Part shown: piece after piece, positions 308 through 53,025 of the stretch
How the letters are laid out: each line of letters starts with the position of its first letter
Position numbering within the stretch: position 1 is the stretch's first letter
Source of the DNA: an uncultured Candidatus Saccharibacteria bacterium
Lineage (GTDB): Bacteria > Patescibacteriota > Saccharimonadia > CAILAD01 > JADZBC01
Length of the DNA stretch: 53,025 bases
Direction: 5' to 3'
NCBI GenBank assembly: GCA_964413715.1
Contig: CAYPSN010000002.1
Span: 66,850 to 119,874 of the forward strand
The notes under the pieces: generated by a model
What the model saw: only the letters and a program-made list of their open reading frames with translations
Told to the model about the DNA's origin: nothing
The model's database searches: none
Position numbers and translations under genes: made by a program

Positions 308-517
308 ATGGCAGACTCGAAGAGCAAGGACCCGACCGTTTGGCTGGTCTCCTACTTCGTAGCGGCGATCATCACGATCGTGCTACTAGGAGCAGCGCTG
401 AACATGCTGATGGCTGCATTGCCGGTCACGGTGATGCTGATCATCATCGGCGTCCTGGCCTGGCTGTACATCCGCGAGCGTCGCAACTTCGCGGAGTACC
501 GGCGCAACCACCCGTAG
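308..517 (+). CDS. Small hydrophobic protein (69 aa), GC-rich cassette, no recognisable family
   Basis: ATG 308 preceded by AAGGAAAGGGGG. Two hydrophobic stretches (VWLVSYFVAAIITIVLLGAAL, LPVTVMLIIIGVLAWLYI). High GC3. Confidence 0.55.
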   Translation: MADSKSKDPTVWLVSYFVAAIITIVLLGAALNMLMAALPVTVMLIIIGVLAWLYIRERRNFAEYRRNHP

Positions 518-649
518 CGAACGCTACCCAACAGTCAGCCTCGGCTGACAGATTGGAGGCGCCTATGCGCTTTCGAGGGTTGTGCGAGTGATCGTGCAGC
601 CCTGCGGCTGGCCTGATTCGGCCAACCCACTGCCCTTTCCTTCTCAACC

Positions 650-700
650 CACGTCATCAAATGTGTATTTGATCTGAAGAGTTCAAAAGAACGAAACGTG
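650..700 (+). ncRNA. Type III hammerhead ribozyme (HH8)
   Basis: CACGU-C (cleavage predicted after C655), stem I AUCAAA-UGUGUA-UUUGAU, CUGAAGA, stem II GUUC-AAAA-GAAC, GAAA, CGUG. All invariant core positions present. Small hairpin UGGCC/GGCCA at 609-624. Confidence 0.8.
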
Positions 701-711
701 AAAAGAAGAAT

Positions 712-1281
712 CTAGAGAGACTCAATAAACTGCTTAAACTGCGTAAAGCCTGTATACGTGTACCCTTGCATGCCAGACTCTATCGCCCCATCTACATTGC
801 GCTGCCTGTCATCAACAAATAAGATTTCTTCGGCCGGTACAGATACCGACGAAAGTATCTGAGCATAAAAACCCGGCTGGGGCTTAATTACACCCATCTC
901 CGAAGACACAAACACATATTCGAATATGCCAGTAAAATGTTCTTTTTGCAGCAACTCACGCAGCAAATGTGCGCTGGCATTACTTGCAATATAGAGCTGG
1001 TACCGAGGGGCGAGTTGGTTTTTAATATAGCTAAACAACATAGGCTCAATTGGGCTCACGCCATGCTCTCTAGCCCGCAAGACCTCTGCGTCTACGTCAG
1101 CAATCTTGCTTACTTGCTCGTAATACTCATCATCGTTGGCGAGTTCGCCTATGTCTCGCTTACGAAATAACTCATGCAACTTAGCCTTCACGTCTGGCGA
1201 CAGATCGGACTCATTTACCCAATTATGACCATAGTCATCTAACAGCACCCCAAAGCAGTCGAAGGCAATGGCACGAATCAT
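712..1281 (-). CDS. HAD-superfamily hydrolase
   Basis: N-terminal IAFDCFGVL motif I and FVDDRQRNVDGA motif IV-like. 189 aa. 4-nt overlap with polA stop. Confidence 0.7.
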   Translation of the reverse strand: MIRAIAFDCFGVLLDDYGHNWVNESDLSPDVKAKLHELFRKRDIGELANDDEYYEQVSKIADVDAEVLRAREHGVSPIEPMLFSYIKNQLAPRYQLYIASNASAHLLRELLQKEHFTGIFEYVFVSSEMGVIKPQPGFYAQILSSVSVPAEEILFVDDRQRNVDGAIESGMQGYTYTGFTQFKQFIESL

Positions 1282-5612: not shown

Positions 5613-7394
5613 TCAATCCTCGTTTAGTATCGCCTGATATTCTGCCAAAAGGCGCTTTACGCTCTTTTGGTCTTGAGCGGCTTCAGCCTCAGCTATTTGC
5701 TTTGCTAACCGTCGCTTATTCAATTCTCGATTTAGTTTTTGCAATCTATGCACTTGGGTGTAGGCTTCGAGCCCAATGTCGTGCTCCGTTAAGTCGGAGT
5801 ATTCTTCTTCACCCTTTAACGCAAGAATTTTAACATCATTTTCGTGCTCTGGCAAGAGTTTTGCAAGCATGGGCAAATCGGCCTTGGGCTTTTTGCTTAT
5901 TGTTTCAAAGTATGGCCGAAAACGTTCGCTTGTTTGCGAAATACTAAGGTCACTTAATGCCACTCGCGCGGCAGGAAATGCCAAAATTAGCTTTAAAAAT
6001 GCCTCTTCGGTGCGCTCTTGCTTAGTAAGTTGCGAGGGCTTTGACTGGACTTGCGTCATGATATGCTGCTCCGAATCCACGCTATCCGAATATCGATCAA
6101 CAGCATTTGTTGGAGTTGGCTGTGTGTTAAAGCGCTCGAATTCCTCACGCAGCACTACCAGGTTACTACCCAGGAGTGGCGCTGAAAACTCAAGCGCGCG
6201 AGCTTGCTCTGCATTCGAAAGATCCTTAATAGTTTCAAAAATAAAATTCTGCTTCTTTTTGAGGTCTGCGCCGCTCGAACCTTTAAAGGTTTTGCTGGCA
6301 AATGAAATTAAATAATCAACCGCCGACTGAGCCGAAGTAACAGCCTGATCCCACAGCGCTTTGTCTTTTTTAACCAATTCATCGGGGTCTTTGGCGCCAT
6401 CAAAGCTAATTACTCGCAGCTCGATTGACTTGTCCGCCTGGTGCGCCAGAGCCAAAACCCGTTGCGTAGCTTTAATGCCAGCCACGTCTTGGTCGAAGCA
6501 AATTTTAATGTTCTTGGTAAGTCTGGCTAGAATCTTAAGTTGCTCAGCAGTAAGTGCGGTACCACTACAGGCCACAACCTGCTGAAAACCAGCATCGTGT
6601 AGAGCAACAACGTCCATATTGCCTTCGACGATCACAACCTCGTCATGTGCACGAATGGACTCTTTTGCCTGAGTGAGACCATAGATCGCCGTACTTTTGT
6701 TATAGATGGGCGTCTGAGGCGTATTAATATACTTAGCCCCAGCTTCATCACCCGGCAAGACACGCCCGCTGAATCCAACGGGTCGACCCTGACTGTCGAA
6801 TATCGGAAAAACTACTCTCCCCCGAAACATATCATAGGCGCTTGTCTTACCCTGCTTACGAGCCGCTACACCCGCTTGCACCATTTGGTCGTAGCTAAAG
6901 CCCTTTTTGCTCAAAAGACCCGTCAGGGCATCCCAGCTCTGCGGAGCATAGCCAAGTTGATAGTCCTTAATAGCTTGAGCACTCAAACCACGCTCTTGCC
7001 GCAGATAATCAAGCGCGGGCTTATTGCGCGAAAGCGAAAGGTGGTAGTACTTAACGGCAAGCTCTACGATGTCATAGAGTTTCGTTTTGCTCGGGCCTTT
7101 GCTGGACTGACCTCGTGGTTTTAACTGCACACCAGCTCGCTTGGCTAGGATCTCTAATGCTTCAGGGAAGCTGATGCCTTCCATACGCATTACAAAGGTA
7201 AAGATATCTCCGCCTTCGTCGGTAGAAAAATCATGCCATATGCCCTTTTCGGGACTCACCATAAAGCTGGGAGTTTTTTCAGCATGAAAAGGCGAGAGAG
7301 CTTTGAGGTTACGGCCAGCTGGCTTGAGCTGGATATAGCTACCGATCACATCGGCAATATCAAGTTTTTGTTTAATTTCTTGAACCTCATCCAT
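5613..7394 (-). CDS. dnaG: DNA primase
   Basis: PFHAEKTPSF primase zinc-binding-domain signature (Cys ligands substituted), TOPRIM VVIVEGNMDVVAL. Start moved to MDEVQEIK (ATG 7394). Directly upstream of rpoD. Confidence 0.9.
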   Translation of the reverse strand: MDEVQEIKQKLDIADVIGSYIQLKPAGRNLKALSPFHAEKTPSFMVSPEKGIWHDFSTDEGGDIFTFVMRMEGISFPEALEILAKRAGVQLKPRGQSSKGPSKTKLYDIVELAVKYYHLSLSRNKPALDYLRQERGLSAQAIKDYQLGYAPQSWDALTGLLSKKGFSYDQMVQAGVAARKQGKTSAYDMFRGRVVFPIFDSQGRPVGFSGRVLPGDEAGAKYINTPQTPIYNKSTAIYGLTQAKESIRAHDEVVIVEGNMDVVALHDAGFQQVVACSGTALTAEQLKILARLTKNIKICFDQDVAGIKATQRVLALAHQADKSIELRVISFDGAKDPDELVKKDKALWDQAVTSAQSAVDYLISFASKTFKGSSGADLKKKQNFIFETIKDLSNAEQARALEFSAPLLGSNLVVLREEFERFNTQPTPTNAVDRYSDSVDSEQHIMTQVQSKPSQLTKQERTEEAFLKLILAFPAARVALSDLSISQTSERFRPYFETISKKPKADLPMLAKLLPEHENDVKILALKGEEEYSDLTEHDIGLEAYTQVHRLQKLNRELNKRRLAKQIAEAEAAQDQKSVKRLLAEYQAILNED

Positions 7395-8505: not shown

Positions 8506-10038
8506 TTATTTCCAGGACCAGGTGCTTTCTAAGGTGGAGACGGCGTTTTTAGTAAACTCGTCGTTCGATGACATATTAATTTCAAAACTCGTTATCGTGT
8601 CGCTATCAAGCTTGTATTTACTGTTTTTCAGTACGACCACTATCATTGTTTTATTCTGTGGCGCTTCTGTAGTACCGGCATTAAAGACTACCTCTTGTGC
8701 ATCAAAGCCACCGAGAGTAATTTTGCGCTCCGACACCGTGTTGGCAGCCGTAACTTTGTTTGCCTCCTTGGAAGCCGCTACTGCTTTATCTAGACTATCA
8801 ACTTTTGTTATCGATGGCAGCACAGCAATCGTACTTACACCTTGCGAACCAAATGTAGCATCAACTTTACACGCTGAATCATCGGTAGTTACGGTATTGT
8901 CGGTCGGGAGGGCAAATTCAAAACACTTCTTTACAACCGCTACGTAGCCGTCGGGCACAGTAATAGTGGCTTCGAGATTTGCCGAGTCAGACTGCTGTTG
9001 CTCACCCGAAAGCGAATCAGCTGGTACTTCCGTAACCGGTTTTCTACCAAGAATAAGAGCCAAAATAACGATGCCAAAAATCAAAACTGCTGCGCCAATT
9101 CCGACGGCCATTAACACGCCTTTGCCACCTTTGCCGCCAGAACTAGGCGTTGCGGCCATGAGAGCAGGATCGCTATAAGGATCAACTGCAGCTGCTTGAC
9201 CAGCATTTGGATCATCAAGCATGGATTGCAAAGTTGGATCAGTAGCAGCTTGCGGCACCTGGCCATCCATTCCTGGCGCCAACGGTGCACCCGTTACAGG
9301 ATCAATTGCTGTTTGCTCAACTGCGGGCGCAGGCATGGGTTCGGGCATAGCCGGTGCAGCTGGCATAGGTGCAGACTCAGGAGCGATTGGAGCCACAACT
9401 GGCTCGGGCTGAGCTACAGGGGCTTCCGTGGCCATAGGAACGGCCGGTACTGCAGAAGCGTCCATCTCGAGAGGATTAGGAGGCAATGGCTCTGGCGCAG
9501 CTGGGTATGACGTAGCTGGAGCTCCAACGCCAGTATCTTGGCTAGGATCATATGCCTGTGTTGCAGCCGGAGCCGGCATTGCATTTGCAGCGGCATCAGG
9601 CACTACGGGTGCAGCTGGCGCTACTGGTTGGCCTGGAGTAACTGGCACAGCTGGGTCTGGCATAGTTGGCGTTGGCGCTACTGCTTGGCCCGGCATAGCC
9701 TGACTATCGCCAGCCAAAGGTGCTGCGACTGGCGCAGCTTGCACGCTAGGATTCGTAAAGCCCGCCATTGGGTCAGGATTCTCGGCAGCCATATGCGCAT
9801 CAACCACTGCATCGGCTGGATTAGCGGCAGGCGCTGCTGCAGGAGATGCTGGGGCAGCAGGTGGAGTCAATTGGGCGTTTAAAGCGTCTTGGAGGGCTGA
9901 GCCCCCAGAAGCAGCAGGCGCTGTAGGCGCTGGCGTGGCCGCATACGTTGGCGGTATTTGGGCGTCTAGATTAGCTGGCTGGCTCGCACCGTCAGCTGGA
10001 GCATTATTCAATGGAGATTGTGGATCTTGTGGAGTCAT
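8506..10038 (-). CDS. Pro/Ala-rich membrane-anchored protein
   Basis: About 300 aa of P/A low complexity, one TM (GVLMAVGIGAAVLIFGIVILALILG), then a roughly 170-aa globular C-terminal region. Confidence 0.6.
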   Translation of the reverse strand: MTPQDPQSPLNNAPADGASQPANLDAQIPPTYAATPAPTAPAASGGSALQDALNAQLTPPAAPASPAAAPAANPADAVVDAHMAAENPDPMAGFTNPSVQAAPVAAPLAGDSQAMPGQAVAPTPTMPDPAVPVTPGQPVAPAAPVVPDAAANAMPAPAATQAYDPSQDTGVGAPATSYPAAPEPLPPNPLEMDASAVPAVPMATEAPVAQPEPVVAPIAPESAPMPAAPAMPEPMPAPAVEQTAIDPVTGAPLAPGMDGQVPQAATDPTLQSMLDDPNAGQAAAVDPYSDPALMAATPSSGGKGGKGVLMAVGIGAAVLIFGIVILALILGRKPVTEVPADSLSGEQQQSDSANLEATITVPDGYVAVVKKCFEFALPTDNTVTTDDSACKVDATFGSQGVSTIAVLPSITKVDSLDKAVAASKEANKVTAANTVSERKITLGGFDAQEVVFNAGTTEAPQNKTMIVVVLKNSKYKLDSDTITSFEINMSSNDEFTKNAVSTLESTWSWK

Positions 10039-39393: not shown

Positions 39394-40155
39394 TTATTTT
39401 TTATCCTTAGTCCACGCTAGTTCAAATAGCTGCCTGAGAGCTCCTACGATTTCCTTACTCTCAATAACGATGCCTGCTGAAGATTTACCTTCGCTTCCAT
39501 AAGAAATCAGGAGAGCCCTGTCCTCGTACAAGTTGATGTCTGCCTGAACAGGGCTATTGAGGCGCATTGTTTCCCTCAATAAGCCTTTATCTGACGGCAC
39601 TTCATCCTTAAATGAGTATATAAGTTTACTAGATAGTCTTTTCTTTAAACGATTTTTAGGGCTAGTTTTTTCTATGTCAGGCACAAGACGAGTCACTTCA
39701 TCGTAATTGCTCATAGCGTATATCGTAGAGCCCACTCGAGCTTTTCTCCGAGTGTCCGAGGTGGTACTATTGATGCCCTCAAGGCCTTTGTAAAAACGAA
39801 CCACGGGAGCCTCTCCAGCAGAACCATGCTCCTGCTGCTTCAAACTCGGCATCAGGTTCTTCAGCTCGCTCTTCTTCGTTTCAATACTCGACTTTTGGCT
39901 GTCCAAGTAACGTTCGAGTGCCTCGGGTGGTTCGGCTACGAAAACAGTTTTTTTACCTTCTGTAGACTGGCTTACTAATCCCATTTCGGCTAGTTCATCT
40001 AGTATTACGTAAGTGGTAGCACGGTTAACCTCGGACTGCTGTGCGATCTTTTGTGCACTAGCTGAACCTAGAAAAAGCGCGGCCACGTACACACGTGCCT
40101 GCTTGTCGGCCAGGCCTACAGATTGTAATTTAGCTGCGAGTTCAATAATTTGCAT
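39394..40155 (-). CDS. TrmB-family transcriptional regulator (paralog 1)
   Basis: N-terminal wHTH LGLADKQARVYVAALFLGSASAQKIAQQSEVNRATTYVILDELAEMGLV, a coiled-coil linker and a C-terminal domain. Start moved to MQIIEL (40155). Confidence 0.8.
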   Translation of the reverse strand: MQIIELAAKLQSVGLADKQARVYVAALFLGSASAQKIAQQSEVNRATTYVILDELAEMGLVSQSTEGKKTVFVAEPPEALERYLDSQKSSIETKKSELKNLMPSLKQQEHGSAGEAPVVRFYKGLEGINSTTSDTRRKARVGSTIYAMSNYDEVTRLVPDIEKTSPKNRLKKRLSSKLIYSFKDEVPSDKGLLRETMRLNSPVQADINLYEDRALLISYGSEGKSSAGIVIESKEIVGALRQLFELAWTKDKK

Positions 40156-40162
40156 GTGTTTA

Positions 40163-40191
40163 AATATACTACATTTGTCAAAATTTGTCAA
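40163..40191 (-). promoter_or_regulatory. Promoter of TrmB paralog 1 (apparently leaderless)
   Basis: TTGACA (40191-40186), 17-nt spacer, TATATT (40168-40163), then 7 nt to ATG 40155. Second TGTCAA copy at 40176-40181. Confidence 0.55.
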
Positions 40192-40266
40192 CAATATATC
40201 AATTTAACCTGTACAAATACGTAATAATGTTGTAGAATAAGTTGTCTCTACCGAAAGGGGACTTCC

Positions 40267-42156: not shown

Positions 42157-42936
42157 TTATTTTCTAGACTTGCCGCTACCAGCGTTCGCGCTTGCAACTC
42201 CTGTTTTTACCAATGTAAAAATCTGCTTCATTGCCTCGGCTATCTGTGGGCTCTCTATAATCGTACCGATAACTTCTTCGCCGTATGAAATCAGTGCGGT
42301 TTTGTTGCCATACACATATAGGTTCACAGGCGCCGTAAAGGCTTCGCGCGGCGCCCAGGCCATGTCTCGGAGCATTGCTTTGTCATGTTCACGACCGTAG
42401 CGGATATTATCTTCTTCAGCCGGTTCTATACCGTGCGCTTTTATACCCAGTTTGGCCCGCTGCTCCATGTGCTTGTACAAATCTTTGCCCAACACGTTAA
42501 AGTCAGCATCCGAGCGGATAAAGTAAATGTCTTTACCCGTCCTACGCTGGTCTTCGTACATCTTTATAATCCCTTCTTTACCCTGGAAGAAGCGCACGCC
42601 AGGCTGATGCTGATAGGTGTAGAAGTAATTCAGTAGCTGCGGCATGCTGTCTCGCACCAGTTTTTCGGTAGCAAGAATCTCCTTACGTTTTTCTTCGATA
42701 AGTCGCTCTAAATTTGTGGGGTTGGCGGGATGATAACTCAGCTTTTTGCCAGATTCATCCTTCTCAACAAGACCTAGTGCGCACAACTTGTCGAGAATCA
42801 TATAACAATTTGTACGTGTTTCACCAATCTTTTCAGCCAACTCTGGGGGTGTTAAATCACCAAACTTTATAAGCGTAATATATGCTTTTGCCTGGCTTTT
42901 GGTTAAGCCTATTTGTTGTAAGAGTTCTGCATTCAT
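42157..42936 (-). CDS. TrmB-family transcriptional regulator (paralog 2)
   Basis: IGLTKSQAKAYITLIKFGDLTPPELAEKIGETRTNCYMILDKLCALGLV wHTH. 259 aa. Confidence 0.8.
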   Translation of the reverse strand: MNAELLQQIGLTKSQAKAYITLIKFGDLTPPELAEKIGETRTNCYMILDKLCALGLVEKDESGKKLSYHPANPTNLERLIEEKRKEILATEKLVRDSMPQLLNYFYTYQHQPGVRFFQGKEGIIKMYEDQRRTGKDIYFIRSDADFNVLGKDLYKHMEQRAKLGIKAHGIEPAEEDNIRYGREHDKAMLRDMAWAPREAFTAPVNLYVYGNKTALISYGEEVIGTIIESPQIAEAMKQIFTLVKTGVASANAGSGKSRK

Positions 42937-43062: not shown

Positions 43063-43119
43063 TCCCCAGGCTCAAGCAACCCCGCTAGAGCCAGCACCTC
43101 GACACGCCTAGGAGGCGAC

Positions 43120-43272
43120 ATGCACGACGATCAAGAGTGGTTCGACAACCGGGACCTCCTCCCCCGCGGAATCATCCTCGGAGTGAGGCCGAAGCCCACG
43201 AACACGCAAAGCAACACGCTGAGCGACGCACTCGAAGACCTGCTGGAGCGGCGCTTCCTGCGCCGACTCTGA
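43120..43272 (+). CDS. Small hypothetical protein (50 aa), first ORF of the operon
   Basis: ATG 43120 follows GGAGG by 5 nt. Sequence MHDDQEWFDNRDLLPRG... Confidence 0.45.
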   Translation: MHDDQEWFDNRDLLPRGIILGVRPKPTNTQSNTLSDALEDLLERRFLRRL

Positions 43273-43316
43273 CGAGGCAACAAGGTAAACGGGGCGGTAC
43301 CTACAAACCCGCCCCC

Positions 43317-43373
43317 CTGACTCGGAGAGTAACGCGCTCTCCCTGACGATGACCGCGCACGGTCGAAAGTCAG
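43317..43373 (+). ncRNA. Type III hammerhead ribozyme (HH1) preceded by a hairpin
   Basis: CUGACU-C (cleavage after 43323), stem I GGAGAG-UAACGCG-CUCUCC, CUGACGA, one extra U, stem II GACCG-CGCA-CGGUC, GAAA, GUCAG. Hairpin GGGGCGG/CCGCCCC at 43291-43315. Confidence 0.8.
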
Positions 43374-43397
43374 CCGCACCTTGAACCAAGGAGAACA

Positions 43398-44003
43398 ATG
43401 AGCACCCCAGCCCTACTGAAAGTCGTCCTGACGGGCGGTCCCTGCGCCGGAAAGACCACGGTCTTCCGCCGCATCGAGCAAGAGTACGGACACCTGGTAA
43501 CGCTGGTGCCCGAAGTAGCCACCATGCTGCTCTCGAGCGGCTACCCCATGCCCGGACGCGACCTCGACTGGTCGCCCGGCTGGCGAGACAGCTTCCAGCG
43601 AGCCATCGCCACGGTCCAGGAAGAGGTAGAGGCGGCCTACGAAATGCGAGCTAAGGAGCGAGGTCACCGCCTCCTCCTGACCGACCGAGGCCTGATGGAC
43701 GGAGCGGCCTACTACGACAGCCGAGCTGAGTTCCTGAGCGCAACCGGAATCGACCATGGCACTGCCCTGGCTCGATACCAGGCGGTCATCCACCTCGAAT
43801 CCGTCGCCATCGCTCAGCCGGAGCTCTACTCGAAGGGCAACAACCCCTTCCGCTTCGAGACACTTGAGGAGGCCATCCCTCTCGAGGCCAAAACCCGAAG
43901 CGCTTGGGCTGGCCACCCACAGCACACCATCCTGGAGGGCGCCGACCTCGACTACAAGGTTAGCGGTACGCTCAGGGTGCTCGCGGCCTACCTGCAGGCA
44001 TGA
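43398..44003 (+). CDS. P-loop NTPase/kinase-like protein (AAA_28/NadR-kinase-like)
   Basis: Walker A GGPCAGKTT. Roughly 200-aa single-domain P-loop protein. RBS AAGGAG. Confidence 0.65.
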   Translation: MSTPALLKVVLTGGPCAGKTTVFRRIEQEYGHLVTLVPEVATMLLSSGYPMPGRDLDWSPGWRDSFQRAIATVQEEVEAAYEMRAKERGHRLLLTDRGLMDGAAYYDSRAEFLSATGIDHGTALARYQAVIHLESVAIAQPELYSKGNNPFRFETLEEAIPLEAKTRSAWAGHPQHTILEGADLDYKVSGTLRVLAAYLQA

Positions 44004-44041
44004 GCAGTGCAAGGTTCCGGGAGGTCCTTTAAAAACCTCCC

Positions 44042-44094
44042 CTGACTCGCGGAGTGAGTGCTCCGCCTGACGAGCCGGAAACGGCGAAAGTCAG
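44042..44094 (+). ncRNA. Type III hammerhead ribozyme (HH2) preceded by a hairpin
   Basis: CUGACU-C (cleavage after 44048), stem I GCGGAG-UGAGUG-CUCCGC, CUGACGA, stem II GCCG-GAAA-CGGC, GAAA, GUCAG. Hairpin GGGAGGU/ACCUCCC at 44019-44041. Confidence 0.85.
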
Positions 44095-44117
44095 TCCGCA
44101 CCTTGAAGGAGGCTTAC

Positions 44118-44696
44118 ATGCCCACTGAACCGAACAACCCTATCGACGAGATCTTCATCTCGGTCGATATCGAGTGCGACGGGGACATCCCCGGCGACTA
44201 CTCGATGCTCAGCATCGGGGCCACTACCCTCGGCAACAGGTACGATCGCGACTTCTACGTCGAACTCCGGCCCATGACCGAACGGTACAACCCCGACAGC
44301 CTGGCAGTAGCCAGCCTGGACCGCACTCGTCTGCTCCGCGAGGGAGTGCCAGCTCAGGTAGCGATGGCTCGGTTTGCAGCCTGGATCGAGGAAGTCCGCG
44401 GACTCCATGGAGACGCCAAAGCGGTGTGTGTCACTCTCAGCGAGTGGGATAACGGCTGGCTCTACTGGTACTTCGTCCACTTCCTGGGCCAAAAGCCCCT
44501 CGGCTTCACCGGCATCGACATCAAGAGCTACTTCATGGGCAAGCATGACCTGAAGGAGTTCGCGGGCACACCCCGAACCGAGATGCTGAAGCACTACCCG
44601 AGTGAGATCGAGCACACGCACAACGCGCTCGACGACGCCCGGGAGCAAGCCGAGATCTTCTGGGCAATGTACCGAGCCCAGCCTCCACAGGCCTAA
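44118..44696 (+). CDS. DEDDh 3'-5' exonuclease (DnaQ-like fold)
   Basis: ExoI SVDIECDG, ExoIII HNALDDAREQA. ATG 44118 after GAAGGAGG. Confidence 0.75.
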   Translation: MPTEPNNPIDEIFISVDIECDGDIPGDYSMLSIGATTLGNRYDRDFYVELRPMTERYNPDSLAVASLDRTRLLREGVPAQVAMARFAAWIEEVRGLHGDAKAVCVTLSEWDNGWLYWYFVHFLGQKPLGFTGIDIKSYFMGKHDLKEFAGTPRTEMLKHYPSEIEHTHNALDDAREQAEIFWAMYRAQPPQA

Positions 44697-44738
44697 GAGA
44701 CACAGAGGTAACCGGGGTGGTACCTACAAACCCGCCCC

Positions 44739-44791
44739 CTGACTCGCGGAGTGAGTGCTCCGCCTGACGAGCCGGAAACGGCGAAAGTCAG
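44739..44791 (+). ncRNA. Type III hammerhead ribozyme (HH3) preceded by a hairpin
   Basis: Ribozyme sequence identical to HH2 (cleavage after 44745). Hairpin GGGGUGG/CCGCCCC at 44714-44738. Confidence 0.85.
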
Positions 44792-44816
44792 TCCGCACCT
44801 TGAACTAAGGAGACCG

Positions 44817-45119
44817 ATGAGAATCGTTCGTCAAGGATCTATCCCGCCCGACCGCAACATCCAGCGAGGAACTTGCAGGCACTGCGGCACAGTGGTGGAA
44901 GCCAACATAACCACTGAGTGCAACCGGCGTACAACGACCAGGGACATTTACACTGATTATGACCCGGATGGACGACCGCCCTACTACTACAGCAAGACTG
45001 TCACGACCGAATACTTTGAGACGGGTTGTCCAGTCTGCTCAAGGCCAATCTGTGTATCCTCGAGGGAAATCTCGAGTACCCATCGGCCGGATGCACCAAA
45101 AGAAAAGTGGAGCATGTAG
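44817..45119 (+). CDS. Small zinc-ribbon-like protein (100 aa)
   Basis: CRHC...CPVC cysteine pairs. ATG 44817 after AAGGAG. Confidence 0.5.
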   Translation: MRIVRQGSIPPDRNIQRGTCRHCGTVVEANITTECNRRTTTRDIYTDYDPDGRPPYYYSKTVTTEYFETGCPVCSRPICVSSREISSTHRPDAPKEKWSM

Positions 45120-45161
45120 GTAGGCGCACAAGGTTCCGGGAGGTCCTTTCAAAACCTCCCC

Positions 45162-45216
45162 CGACTCGGAGAGTAATGCGCTCTCCCTGACGATGACCGC
45201 GCACGGTCGAAAGTCG
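45162..45216 (+). ncRNA. Type III hammerhead ribozyme (HH4) preceded by a hairpin
   Basis: CGACU-C (cleavage after 45167), stem I GGAGAG-UAAUGCG-CUCUCC, CUGACGA, extra U, stem II GACCG-CGCA-CGGUC, GAAA, GUCG. Hairpin GGGAGGU/ACCUCCC at 45138-45160. Confidence 0.8.
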
Positions 45217-45247
45217 GTATACTGTATAATCTACGAAAAGGAGTTGC

Positions 45248-45883
45248 ATGACCGCACAAGTTATTACCATCGATGGAGGCGCTGGCGTAGGTGGCAGCAC
45301 CACGGCCGAAGCACTAAGTAAGGCACTCGGCTGCGAACACCTCAACGTCGGTGAAATCTACCGCGCCCTCACCTTCGAACTGGTTAGCCTCGGCTGGACG
45401 AAGAAGCAGATTATGAGCTCACCCATGCTGGCGGCCGAGCTGGCGGCCGGATTCAAGCTACAGATTGCTAACGGCAGCGTGGCTAGCGTGAATGGTCAAG
45501 ATTGCCAAGGCAAGCTACACGCAGCAGAAATCAGCAAGCTGGTTCCGACTGTTGCGGCCATTCCCGAGATGCGAGCTACCGCCAAGAAGGTAGAGAAGAA
45601 CTTCATTGCAACTCGGCCACTCAGCATCATCGAGGGTCGAGCGGGCGCCTGGAGTATCCCGCAAGCAGTGCTAAAAATCTGGCTGCATTGCGATCCAGAA
45701 ATCGCCGCCAAGCGGCGCGGCTGCACCGTAGCAGAGATCCTGGAGCGCAACCTAGCGGATGCTACACGCGAGCACTCGCCTATGATCAAGCACCCAGATG
45801 CAGTCGCCATCGACACGGGCAAGCTACTCCCGGCCGAGATTGTGCAGCGCATCACGCAGCTCTACCGCGAACTGGCAGAATGA
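45248..45883 (+). CDS. Cytidylate kinase-like P-loop kinase
   Basis: ITIDGGAGVGGST...LNVGEIYRAL resembles the Cmk N-terminus (IDGPxxxGKST...DTGxxYRA). P-loop Lys replaced (GVGGST). TATAAT at 45225-45230 upstream. Confidence 0.6.
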   Translation: MTAQVITIDGGAGVGGSTTAEALSKALGCEHLNVGEIYRALTFELVSLGWTKKQIMSSPMLAAELAAGFKLQIANGSVASVNGQDCQGKLHAAEISKLVPTVAAIPEMRATAKKVEKNFIATRPLSIIEGRAGAWSIPQAVLKIWLHCDPEIAAKRRGCTVAEILERNLADATREHSPMIKHPDAVAIDTGKLLPAEIVQRITQLYRELAE

Positions 45884-45927
45884 CGCGGACAGCTAGGTTC
45901 CTGGGGAGTCCTACCAAAACTCTCCCC

Positions 45928-45977
45928 CGATTCAGCAGATTATGTCTGCTCTGATGAGCCAAGCATGGCGAAAATCG
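45928..45977 (+). ncRNA. Type III hammerhead ribozyme (HH5) preceded by a hairpin
   Basis: CGAUU-C (cleavage after 45933), stem I AGCAGA-UUAUG-UCUGCU, CUGAUGA, stem II GCCA-AGCA-UGGC, GAAA, AUCG. Hairpin GGGGAGU/ACUCUCC at 45903-45925. Confidence 0.85.
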
Positions 45978-45995
45978 GTTATAGTTAGGAGAATA

Positions 45996-46520
45996 ATGAA
46001 CGAAGTTATCGAAATTGAACGCAAGTGGGTCCTCGATGGGCTACCTGAGGGGATCGTTCCGATAAAAAGCCATGAAATCGAACAGGCATACCTAGATGTT
46101 CGTGGTCTACGTTTGCGTAAAAAAGATGAGGGATACTTAATAACCTACAAGAGCAAGGGCGACTTAGCCCGCAGTGAGTGGGAGCAAGAGATTCCCGCTT
46201 GGACTTATGATGGGCTCAAAGCAGAAGCACGTGCGGTACTTCATAAAACTCGTCACGTCTACAATGGCGGCGAGGTGGCCCTAGAGCTCGATGAATACCA
46301 TGGCGAACTCGAAGGACTCTACACAATCGAAGCCGAATGGGCACTGGAAATCCCTAGCACACTCACCCTGAAAGCAAGACAAGAGCTGATTCAAGATGCC
46401 GAGAAGGCTGCCAAAAGCTACATTCTGCCCTATCAGTTCTCTAACGCTCACGAGGTCACAGGCCTTAAAGCTTATAGCAACCGCTCATTGGCAGTTCACG
46501 GCCTACCGAAGCCTAACTAA
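45996..46520 (+). CDS. CYTH-domain (triphosphate tunnel metalloenzyme) protein
   Basis: N-terminal EIERKW signature. ATG 45996 after AGGAGA. Backbone-like GC. Confidence 0.75.
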   Translation: MNEVIEIERKWVLDGLPEGIVPIKSHEIEQAYLDVRGLRLRKKDEGYLITYKSKGDLARSEWEQEIPAWTYDGLKAEARAVLHKTRHVYNGGEVALELDEYHGELEGLYTIEAEWALEIPSTLTLKARQELIQDAEKAAKSYILPYQFSNAHEVTGLKAYSNRSLAVHGLPKPN

Positions 46521-52016: not shown

Positions 52017-52052
52017 TAATATTTGTATAATTTGAAGATTTATGCTTTATTT

Positions 52053-52093
52053 TGTCAATATCTATTTTGACAAACGCTGGAATGTGCTACAAT
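52053..52093 (+). promoter_or_regulatory. Promoter of TrmB paralog 3 within a TGTCAA-N8-TTGACA palindrome
   Basis: Palindrome 52053-52072. TTGACA 52067-52072, extended -10 TGcTACAAT 52085-52093, then 6 nt to ATG 52100 (leaderless). Confidence 0.55.
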
Positions 52094-52099
52094 ATGGAT

Positions 52100-52837
52100 A
52101 TGGAAAATACCCTACACGAACTCGGCCTGTCAAAATCTCAGGCTCGCGCCTATATGATACTTATTGATAACGGAAGACTCGACCCTCTTTCGTTGGCCAA
52201 AAAAACTGGCGAGGCTAGAACGAACGCTTATATGATTATGGAGCGGCTAGCGGACTTGGGGCTTGCTGTGCGCGACGAAGTGAAGAAGAAGCGAATCTAT
52301 CGCCCATCAAGCCCGTTGGGACTCCAAAGATTGGCTGAAAGACAGAGAGCGAAAGCGCATGAGCAAGAAAGAAAAATTAAGCAAGCCATGCCAGATCTTC
52401 TCCGCTATTTTCATGAAAAGTACAGCCAACCTAGTGTTAGGTTTTTACAGGGCCATGATGGAATCAACCAAATTTACAAGGATCATTTGGCGCAAGATGG
52501 AGATATTTATGTATTTCGCACCCAAGAAGATTACAAGTACTACGGTGATGACCTAAATAGCTATTTGGAAGATAAGGCAAGAAAAGGAATAAAAACCGAA
52601 ATTATATCACCTCAATCCAAAATTGCGCTGCAAAACTTTAAAAACAACCCACTTGGACGAGAATTCACATGGGTACCAGAAGAAAGCTATACGGCTCCTG
52701 TCGAGATATCTATATATGGTAATAAAGCAGCCTTCACGTCATTTGGCGAGGAAGCAGTCGCTCTAATAGTGGAAAGTCCCCAAATCGCAAAAGCATTACG
52801 CGAGATTTTTCTTCTGGTTAAAACAAGGGGTATATAG
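52100..52837 (+). CDS. TrmB-family transcriptional regulator (paralog 3)
   Basis: LGLSKSQARAYMILIDNGRLDPLSLAKKTGEARTNAYMIMERLADLGLA wHTH. Start moved to MENTLHEL (52100). Confidence 0.8.
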   Translation: MENTLHELGLSKSQARAYMILIDNGRLDPLSLAKKTGEARTNAYMIMERLADLGLAVRDEVKKKRIYRPSSPLGLQRLAERQRAKAHEQERKIKQAMPDLLRYFHEKYSQPSVRFLQGHDGINQIYKDHLAQDGDIYVFRTQEDYKYYGDDLNSYLEDKARKGIKTEIISPQSKIALQNFKNNPLGREFTWVPEESYTAPVEISIYGNKAAFTSFGEEAVALIVESPQIAKALREIFLLVKTRGI

Positions 52838-52851
52838 CTAAATAGTGTGAT

Positions 52852-52904
52852 GCAACTTTCGTCCTTTTGGACTCATCAGAATAACCCGACAGTTATTGAG
52901 TTGC
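52852..52904 (-). ncRNA. Type III hammerhead ribozyme (HH7) preceded by a UUCG-capped hairpin
   Basis: Minus strand: GCAACU-C (C at 52898), stem I AAUAAC-UGUCGG-GUUAUU, CUGAUGA, stem II GUCC-AAAA-GGAC, GAAA, GUUGC. A 10-bp hairpin CACCCCGGGC-UUCG-GCCUGGGGUG at 52905-52928 lies immediately 5' on that strand. Confidence 0.8.
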
Positions 52905-53025
52905 CACCCCAGGCCGAAGCCCGGGGTGAGGAGTTTATGTGGCTTACTCCTGTGCCTGCGTAGCTGGGGTAGCTACTTGTTGTGTTGCGGCTTAGTTGCC
53001 GCTGCTGTCCACGATGACGGGGGTC

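Follow-up and report, generated by a model that had tools for sequence, protein, structure and literature searches.

At the right-hand end of the window, by which we mean the whole stretch of 53,025 nucleotides from an uncultured Candidatus Saccharibacteria bacterium that was analysed, the minus strand carries a module of about 150 nt in which a hairpin over the stop codon of a truncated gene (H0) and three further hairpins (H1 to H3) are followed by a hammerhead ribozyme, HH7, which is the 3' edge of the module and begins at the base right after the UUCG hairpin H3 (Table 1). Beyond the ribozyme, and convergent with it, lies a gene for a TrmB-like regulator, whose stop codon is 14 nt away. 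The window ends with its contig (C2) in an assembly of 934 kb that is 93.5% complete, so that absences of genes are to be read as provisional. An earlier note on this DNA had described a hammerhead directly behind a 10-bp UUCG hairpin, preceded by GC-rich sequence from the right edge and by a reading frame with its stop at 52994-52992; every coordinate of the hairpin and the ribozyme proved right, the frame is present, and 52929-53025 has a GC content of 0.567, the window as a whole having 0.496 and the TrmB-like gene 0.425. Where that note placed a single hairpin ahead of the ribozyme, however, there are four conserved ones, the first of them over the stop codon.

Table 1. Features of the module and its surroundings (positions in the window; sequences of minus-strand features are given as RNA, read 5' to 3')
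Feature	Position	Strand	Remarks
Upstream gene, 3' end	52992-53024	-	Last 10 codons ...TPVIVDSSGN* and stop TAA (52994-52992); truncated by contig end
H0, GCGGC-AACUAA-GCCGC	52987-53002	-	Spans stop codon; seven-genome alignment and RNAalifold; 91.4% of cells paired
H1, GUAGCU-ACCCC-AGCUAC	52960-52976	-	3 of 6 pairs changed on both sides
H2, AGGAG...CUCCU	52929-52951	-	Invariant in 7 of 7 genomes
H3	52928-52905	-	10 bp, cUUCGg tetraloop; adjoins ribozyme
Type III hammerhead ribozyme HH7	52904-52852	-	Sequence reading, paralog and ortholog alignments, leave-one-out model
HH7 stem III	GCAACU 52904-52899 with AGUUGC 52857-52852	-	6 bp
HH7 C17	C52898	-	Predicted cut between C52898 and A52897
HH7 stem I	52897-52880	-	6 pairs and one U-G
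HH7 core CUGAUGA	52879-52873	-	
HH7 stem II, GUCC-AAAA-GGAC	52872-52861	-	4 bp, AAAA loop
HH7 GAAA	52860-52857	-	
TrmB-like regulator gene, convergent	52052-52837	+	Pfam TrmB 1.2e-10
Hammerhead positions in the window	646, 37513, 43314, 44039, 44736, 45158, 45924, 52849		Covariance models

HH7 has the conserved catalytic core (C3 U4 G5 A6 N7 G8 A9 ... G12 A13 A14) with three helices around it, and its topology is that of type III, stems I and II being closed by loops and stem III being open. The pair G10.1-C11.1 corresponds to G52872-C52861 and A15.1-U16.1 to A52857-U52899, and the cleavage triplet C-U-C, with C17 at 52898, fits NUH (H being any base other than G). Site-specific self-cleavage that leaves a 2',3'-cyclic phosphate and a 5'-hydroxyl is predicted for this sequence, and the cut at 52898/52897 put forward in the earlier note agrees with the position of C17. 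The AAAA of loop II is kept in six of the seven orthologs and in many paralogs, while loop I, of 3-6 nt, is variable; both loops are short, and neither a Watson-Crick pseudoknot nor a tertiary contact between loops I and II is evident in HH7. Minimal hammerheads cleave slowly at physiological Mg2+. The sequence of this genome also admits an alternative stem that hides CUGAU and is computed to exceed the catalytic fold slightly in stability, by 0.4 kcal/mol (-14.0 vs -13.6 kcal/mol), and the pairing probability of its stem I is about 0.4. The loop of its stem I (52880-52897, minus strand), UGUCGG, permits a GUCGGG/UCUGAU hairpin that would sequester part of the core; this is found in this genome only, the loops of the orthologs in its relatives having other sequences.

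A leave-one-out covariance model (R3), built from four other hammerheads of the window with HH7 excluded, scores HH7 at 58.1 bits (E about 7e-15, a rough value) with 16 of 16 pairs in register, which ranks it below the training copies and above two variant copies. HH7 and four window paralogs align column by column, with 98.8% of the cells paired and 14 of the 16 pairs covarying, against 26-40% in slid controls, and a strict descriptor scan returned seven sites in the 934-kb genome compared with none in each of 20 dinucleotide-preserving shuffles. By these comparisons of sequences HH7 is confirmed as a genuine hammerhead and as more than a chance resemblance. Rfam alone is insufficient to call it, because RF00008 gives 23.7 bits in a permissive scan against a gathering score of 48.5 and aligns in the wrong register, without stem I; six other RF00008 matches in this genome are likewise below the threshold (35.2-43.9 bits), and the gathering scan reported only tmRNA and a tRNA. 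HH7 shares with the Hammerhead_3 family of RF00008 (the type III of viroids, satellites and plants) the open stem III, the closed stems I and II, an identical core and the pairs G10.1-C11.1 and A15.1-U16.1, but differs from it in the triplet CUC (GUC in the model), in its short loops and 4-bp stem II with AAAA, and in its sub-threshold, misregistered match.

The hairpins ahead of the ribozyme are equally visible to comparative analysis: RNAalifold recovers all four, together with the three-way junction, unaided from an alignment of seven genomes. Over the module as a whole 98.3% of the cells are paired and nine of 44 pairs have changed on both sides, as against 95.0 +/- 0.6% of cells paired in shuffles and 37-50% in slid controls, and the single-sequence fold of the module has z = -4.3. 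The consensus of H0 is GCGGC-AACUAR-GCCGC. H3, bounded outward by the pair C52928-G52905 and containing G52922-U52911 below a UUCG loop at 52918-52915, has compensatory changes in three of ten pairs and all cells paired (100%) across the seven genomes. In H2 none of the five pairs ever varies, so that covariation neither supports nor refutes its pairing. All of H2 and the single-stranded stretches CACAACAAGUAG and CGCAGGCACAGGAG are invariant or nearly so in the seven genomes, which are close kin, so that invariance among them is weak evidence. No Rfam family matches the hairpin segment in gathering or permissive scans. An intrinsic terminator would combine a GC-rich hairpin with a U-tract; H3 is followed by GGCAACUCAAUAAC, without a U-tract, and is therefore not an intrinsic terminator. 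No terminator-like site was called on the minus strand at 52850-53025, while the plus-strand complement of H1 was flagged as terminator-like.

Of the seven further genomes in the family, six match the 186 nt around the ribozyme, in alignments of 107-174 nt at 83-91% identity; the single miss is a genome that is 52% complete. All six relatives with a match keep the ribozyme, and the core is intact in all seven genomes, one ortholog reading CUGACGA by a change at the variable position 7. The stems vary: stem II is GCUC/GAGC in G002, a C-G pair of stem III has become U-A in G007, and stem III is one pair longer in G005 and in G006, the latter of the same genus as the genome studied here (G000). 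The G005 ortholog (L006 1452-1642, minus strand) has 29 nt inserted into the loop of stem II, themselves capable of forming a hairpin, with core and stems otherwise intact. Only one hammerhead core turned up in each relative's locus of 5-13 kb, always 3' of the upstream gene. Among five relatives that have a common upstream gene, the hairpins and the ribozyme are conserved about as well as the final 600 nt of coding sequence, and over the 150 nt past the ribozyme conservation drops to 48-59% in nine of ten pairs; from this drop it follows that the conserved unit ends, on its 3' side, with the ribozyme. That HH7 belongs to a unit entering from the right edge, as had been claimed, is borne out by the extent of conservation across relatives, which runs from the last codons through the hairpins to the 3' end of the ribozyme and stops there.

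What stands upstream of the module varies. In the homologous place the G006 ortholog ends in APVIVDSGN*, the end of a protein of 349 aa with a Pfam Band_7 match (4.9e-22), and the upstream gene here probably encodes, to judge by its last residues, an SPFH/Band-7 membrane protein. In G001, G002, G003, G005 and G007 the module adjoins instead a gene for a membrane protein of about 590-620 aa, for which Pfam gave no match. Further upstream the relatives keep a constant gene order, a phosphomutase-like gene followed by a gene of about 300 aa (names taken from ORF sequence only). The two kinds of locus become homologous again exactly at the last three codons of the upstream gene, which form one arm of H0. 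The upstream genes of the relatives have a GC content of 0.58-0.65 as against 0.53-0.55 for their loci, and a variable, GC-rich upstream gene fits an exchangeable unit.

The rest of the upstream gene is absent from the assembly, in which the last 325 nt of the window overlap with no other contig. Contigs from two runs of a different study span the module and the TrmB-like gene without differences and extend past the window end by 389 and 833 nt. Searches by tblastn with both candidate upstream proteins found neither in this assembly, the exact 39-nt pattern of the window end has no match in metagenome contigs, and the G006 SPFH protein, used to look for related loci, retrieved only G006 itself and distant Firmicutes homologs. 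In a run that is a possible source of the assembly, contigs break at 52856-52995, the depth is 32.7 over the module vs 9.6, and the assembly graph forks at both edges of the module, with unlike sequence leading off from loose ends at 52857, 52869 and 52995. Evidently the module is common to co-occurring strains in which its flanks differ, and shared modules of this kind explain a practical nuisance, namely that the contigs of such genomes break at them.

On the downstream side, groES-groEL follows on the same strand as the module in five of the six module-bearing relatives (G001, G002, G005, G006 and G007), the contig of the sixth, G003, ending 144 nt past the ribozyme. In these five the groES promoter (TTGACG, 17-18 nt, TACACT) and a CIRCE inverted repeat lie 20 to about 470 nt past the ribozyme, and the sequence between ribozyme and promoter is unconserved and variable in length. 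Within this otherwise unconserved spacer a hairpin, CUACUUUUGAAGAUACCAAAAGUAG and variants of it, is conserved 150-260 nt past the hammerhead in three loci (L003, L004 and L005). The homologous groES promoter of the present genome is at 50833-50804, and an insert of about 2 kb that occurs in this genome only contains the TrmB-like gene, a 217-aa ORF and a cpYpsA gene. On comparison of the loci, it is peculiar to this genome that the ribozyme meets a convergent gene; the latter is no part of the design, because groESL follows on the same strand in five relatives and the TrmB-like gene is found here only. Two further features of this stretch may be recorded. A perfect sigma-70 consensus (TTGACA, 17 nt, TATAAT) at 52016-51988 on the minus strand heads a unit made up of the GC-rich 217-aa ORF, which has no family, and the cpYpsA SLOG gene, and the TrmB-like gene is one of three paralogous TrmB-family genes of about 260 aa within 13 kb (39394-40194 and 42157-42936 on the minus strand, 52052-52837 on the plus strand).

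HH7 is one of eight hammerheads in the window, the number given in the earlier note; all eight have E <= 1.5e-6, and the next best match has E = 2. Five of them (43314, 44039, 44736, 45158 and 45924) sit in a GC-rich operon (GC about 0.6) at 43100-46520 on the plus strand, with six small ORFs: an unnamed ORF, an AAA_28 ATPase, an RNase_T-like exonuclease (a weak match), an ORF of no assigned kind, a cytidylate kinase and a CYTH protein. A hairpin, a hammerhead and a ribosome-binding site recur as one cassette at every junction of this operon. Two of its hammerheads (43314-43376 and 45158-45220, plus strand) read CUGACGA followed by an extra U and then a 5-bp stem II, GACCG-CGCA-CGGUC, and score 30-35 bits under the lineage model; an extra nucleotide at that place, before stem II, occurs in some viroid hammerheads. 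Near the other end of the window (515-711, plus strand), a GC-rich membrane ORF of 72 aa (299-517) has its stop codon in a hairpin and is followed by several hairpins and by a hammerhead at 648-702, 10 nt beyond which a convergent HAD hydrolase gene ends (712-1281, minus strand). The statement that the layout at HH7 mirrors that of an HH8 fits this hammerhead with its convergent gene end, although HH8 had been given without coordinates.

Across the order, a model of the module matches 30 of 60 genomes, with scores of at least 141 bits in the family of HH7 only; the remaining matches, of at most 62 bits, are paralogous sites of hairpin plus hammerhead, and at the 23 such loci examined neither groES, groEL nor either upstream protein was found. 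Ten of ten metagenome contigs in which stems I and II are the same as here have other stem III sequences and none of the queried neighbouring genes, and in most of them a hairpin can be seen by eye ahead of the ribozyme. In related loci a stop codon lies at most 125 nt upstream of the ribozyme in 29 of 34 hammerheads, counting those with an upstream same-strand ORF of at least 70 aa among mechanically called ORFs. For the frequency of hammerheads that abut convergent genes mechanical ORFs are unreliable, spurious reverse-strand ORFs being called in GC-rich DNA, and the two cases described above were checked by hand.

The inventory of enzymes that make or degrade RNA ends bears on how such a module could act. 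No Rho was found in this genome, nor above the NCBIfam cut-off in any of the 60 genomes of the order, in which 30 weak matches cover only model positions of about 120-410, the ATPase part. The assembly has no match to the RNB family (RNase R/II) or to RtcB, while PNPase (984 bits) and RNase J (529 bits) are present, PNPase being the only major 3'-5' exonuclease family detected. Between 34000 and 53025 there are 21 terminator-like sites as against 18.6 +/- 4.2 in shuffles. GC-rich hairpins with runs of 5-8 T stand upstream of the gene of about 600 aa in three relatives (L012 at about 9052-9100, L013 at about 2246-2295 and L011 at about 6225-6255), and from these terminator-shaped hairpins it follows that terminators and ribozyme ends coexist in the lineage.

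Taken together, the reading that we favour, and consider somewhat more probable than all others combined, is that the module forms the 3' end of the mRNA of a GC-rich membrane-protein gene, an end that would be made by the ribozyme and protected by the hairpins. RNA polymerase would read through the stop codon, H0 to H3 and the ribozyme; HH7 would then fold and cut after C52898, so that the upstream mRNA would end in ...H3-GGCAACUC with a 2',3'-cyclic phosphate, and the stable hairpins would shield this end from PNPase. A hairpin-rich tail with a cyclic phosphate should resist PNPase. The read-through RNA, with a 5'-hydroxyl and the body of the ribozyme at its 5' end, would be detached and may be a substrate of RNase J, and whatever lies downstream would be uncoupled from the upstream gene: here antisense RNA of the TrmB-like gene, in the relatives the CIRCE-controlled groESL unit. 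That the module is transcribed, that it is cleaved in vivo, that the new end is protected from PNPase and what becomes of the downstream fragment are all inferred. The earlier note had spoken of a hairpin-protected 3' end generated where a GC-rich unit meets a convergent gene; the first half of this survives as the most economical reading, whereas the second applies to this genome only, five of the six relatives having groESL in that place. The tail has more in it, with its four hairpins and the invariant single strands between them, than the protection of an end requires, which counts against the reading that we favour.

Of the alternatives, one that we regard as unlikely would make the module the edge of GC-rich gene cassettes that can be exchanged. 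It would then matter chiefly for how genes are swapped or acquired, and the cleavage of RNA would be secondary or would serve the element. One syntenic slot, between the phosphomutase-like and 300-aa genes on one side and groESL on the other, holds two unrelated genes, SPFH/Band_7 (in G006, and in G000 by its last 10 residues) or that of about 600 aa, and the exact resumption of homology at the last three codons and H0, the forks of the assembly graph at the module edges and the greater depth over the module, the high GC content of the associated genes and the ten metagenome contigs that agree in stems I and II but have another stem III and none of the queried neighbours would all suit such a boundary. 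Against it stand the lack of a reverse transcriptase match and of any direct-repeat or att-like signature, and the position of the two tyrosine recombinases that were found, neither of which is near the module; covariation, moreover, points to selection on RNA pairing and not on DNA sequence, and the retention of the module across a gene replacement can equally reflect selection for an RNA function. A cassette boundary is, besides, compatible with a ribozyme-made mRNA end.

The near-invariance of CACAACAAGUAG, CGCAGGCACAGGAG and H2, which goes beyond what a generic block to exonucleases asks for, and the unusually stable fold would find an explanation if the segment from the stop codon to C52898 were a functional 3'-UTR-derived RNA or a protein-binding platform, with the ribozyme setting its exact 3' end. 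We give this little credence, since there is no sign of a promoter or of a 5' processing site for such an RNA, Rfam has no family that matches the segment, and invariance among seven genomes as closely akin as these is weak evidence.

Equally improbable, in our estimate, is that HH7 serves as an insulator of groESL in the manner of RiboJ, cutting off read-through so that the promoter and its CIRCE heat-shock control would be neither bypassed nor burdened by a long leader. The position of the ribozyme, 20-470 nt upstream of the groES promoter and CIRCE on the same strand in five relatives, speaks for it, but the promoter lies downstream of the ribozyme, so that groESL mRNA made from it lacks the ribozyme, the sequence between the two is neither conserved nor constant in length, the module is intact in the present genome with 2 kb and a convergent gene between HH7 and groES, and none of the 23 paralogous loci in other families has groES nearby. 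That HH7 is an inactive relic or a chance motif with no present function, as its score below the Rfam gathering threshold and the competing fold in this genome might suggest, is highly improbable given core nucleotides intact in seven of seven genomes, compensatory changes in stems II and III and the flanking hairpins, and no descriptor match in any of the 20 shuffles.

Three further candidates were considered and set aside. Circular RNA by ligation was rejected on the lack of a detected RtcB and of a second hammerhead flanking the upstream gene in the relatives, retro-mobility on the lack of an RVT_1 match, and a phage origin on a blastn search of 50,697 phage records that gave no match. For a helix that might tie the 5' and 3' ends together, RNAduplex pairing of the 5' region with the module in five relatives was no better than with shuffled modules (e.g. 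-74.5 vs -70.5 +/- 5.9).

Several known systems resemble the module in part. Intrinsic terminator hairpins and 3' stabilisers of the REP type show that a stable 3' hairpin blocks 3'-5' exonucleases; unlike intrinsic terminators, HH7 has no U-tract, and its 3' end would come from self-cleavage and not from release by the polymerase. The synthetic RiboJ insulator couples a ribozyme with a hairpin to decouple neighbouring transcription units, its hairpin following the ribozyme and shaping a 5' end, whereas the hairpins of HH7 precede the ribozyme and would shape a 3' end. The glmS ribozyme is a metabolite-dependent switch in the 5'-UTR that destroys its own mRNA, and work attributed to Collins et al. 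in 2007 is said to have found that its cleavage yields a downstream RNA whose 5'-hydroxyl is a mark for RNase J1. HH7 would resemble it in one step, the passage of 5'-hydroxyl RNA to RNase J, the gene for which is present here, but it is unlike glmS in being constitutive, in standing at the 3' end and in that it would spare the upstream mRNA.

The nearest relatives of HH7 are other bacterial hammerheads. The survey by Perreault et al. (2011, PMC3088659) reports hundreds of them, many near prophage integrases and several flanking genes, and proposes the processing of long transcripts as a role. The clustered bacterial and prophage hammerheads are like ours in class, in their intergenic position right after genes and in the presence of several copies close together, as with the eight of this window and the five in one operon at 43314-45981, and the role proposed for both is alike, in that long transcripts would be cut to gene-length mRNAs. 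The same account places its examples mostly near integrases and prophages, with flanked genes that are not constant, whereas HH7 has conserved orthologs at a chromosomal slot by groESL in one family of Saccharibacteria, and, unlike the clusters described there, it is a single terminal copy fused to a four-hairpin tail and has no match among phage records.

A search for literature on hammerheads in Saccharibacteria, CPR or Patescibacteria, which did not extend to subscription journals and supplements, found nothing relevant. The kind of ribozyme is already known; what is new is that it occurs in this lineage, that its orthologs are conserved next to groESL and that it is fused to a tail of hairpins with covarying pairs. 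As a speculation that goes further, and that is in our view more likely to fail than to hold by a wide measure, hairpin-plus-hammerhead modules may serve Rho-less Saccharibacteria as a regular and heritable substitute for terminators on GC-rich accessory genes, with self-cleavage providing the hairpin-capped mRNA 3' end, with RNase J entering on the nascent 5'-OH RNA, pursuing the polymerase and dislodging it as a 'torpedo' of bacterial co-transcriptional cleavage, and with the edges of the modules acting as junctions of gene exchange between strains. The purpose of bacterial hammerheads has been open since hundreds of them were found in 2011. HH7 is conserved at a housekeeping locus, is joined to a covarying hairpin tail and stands where the conserved sequence of its gene ends, in a genome with no Rho or RNB family detected; with it, the idea that such ribozymes make mRNA 3' ends or insulate neighbouring genes becomes a concrete prediction, that of cyclic-phosphate 3' ends at C52898 and of 5'-OH ends at A52897.
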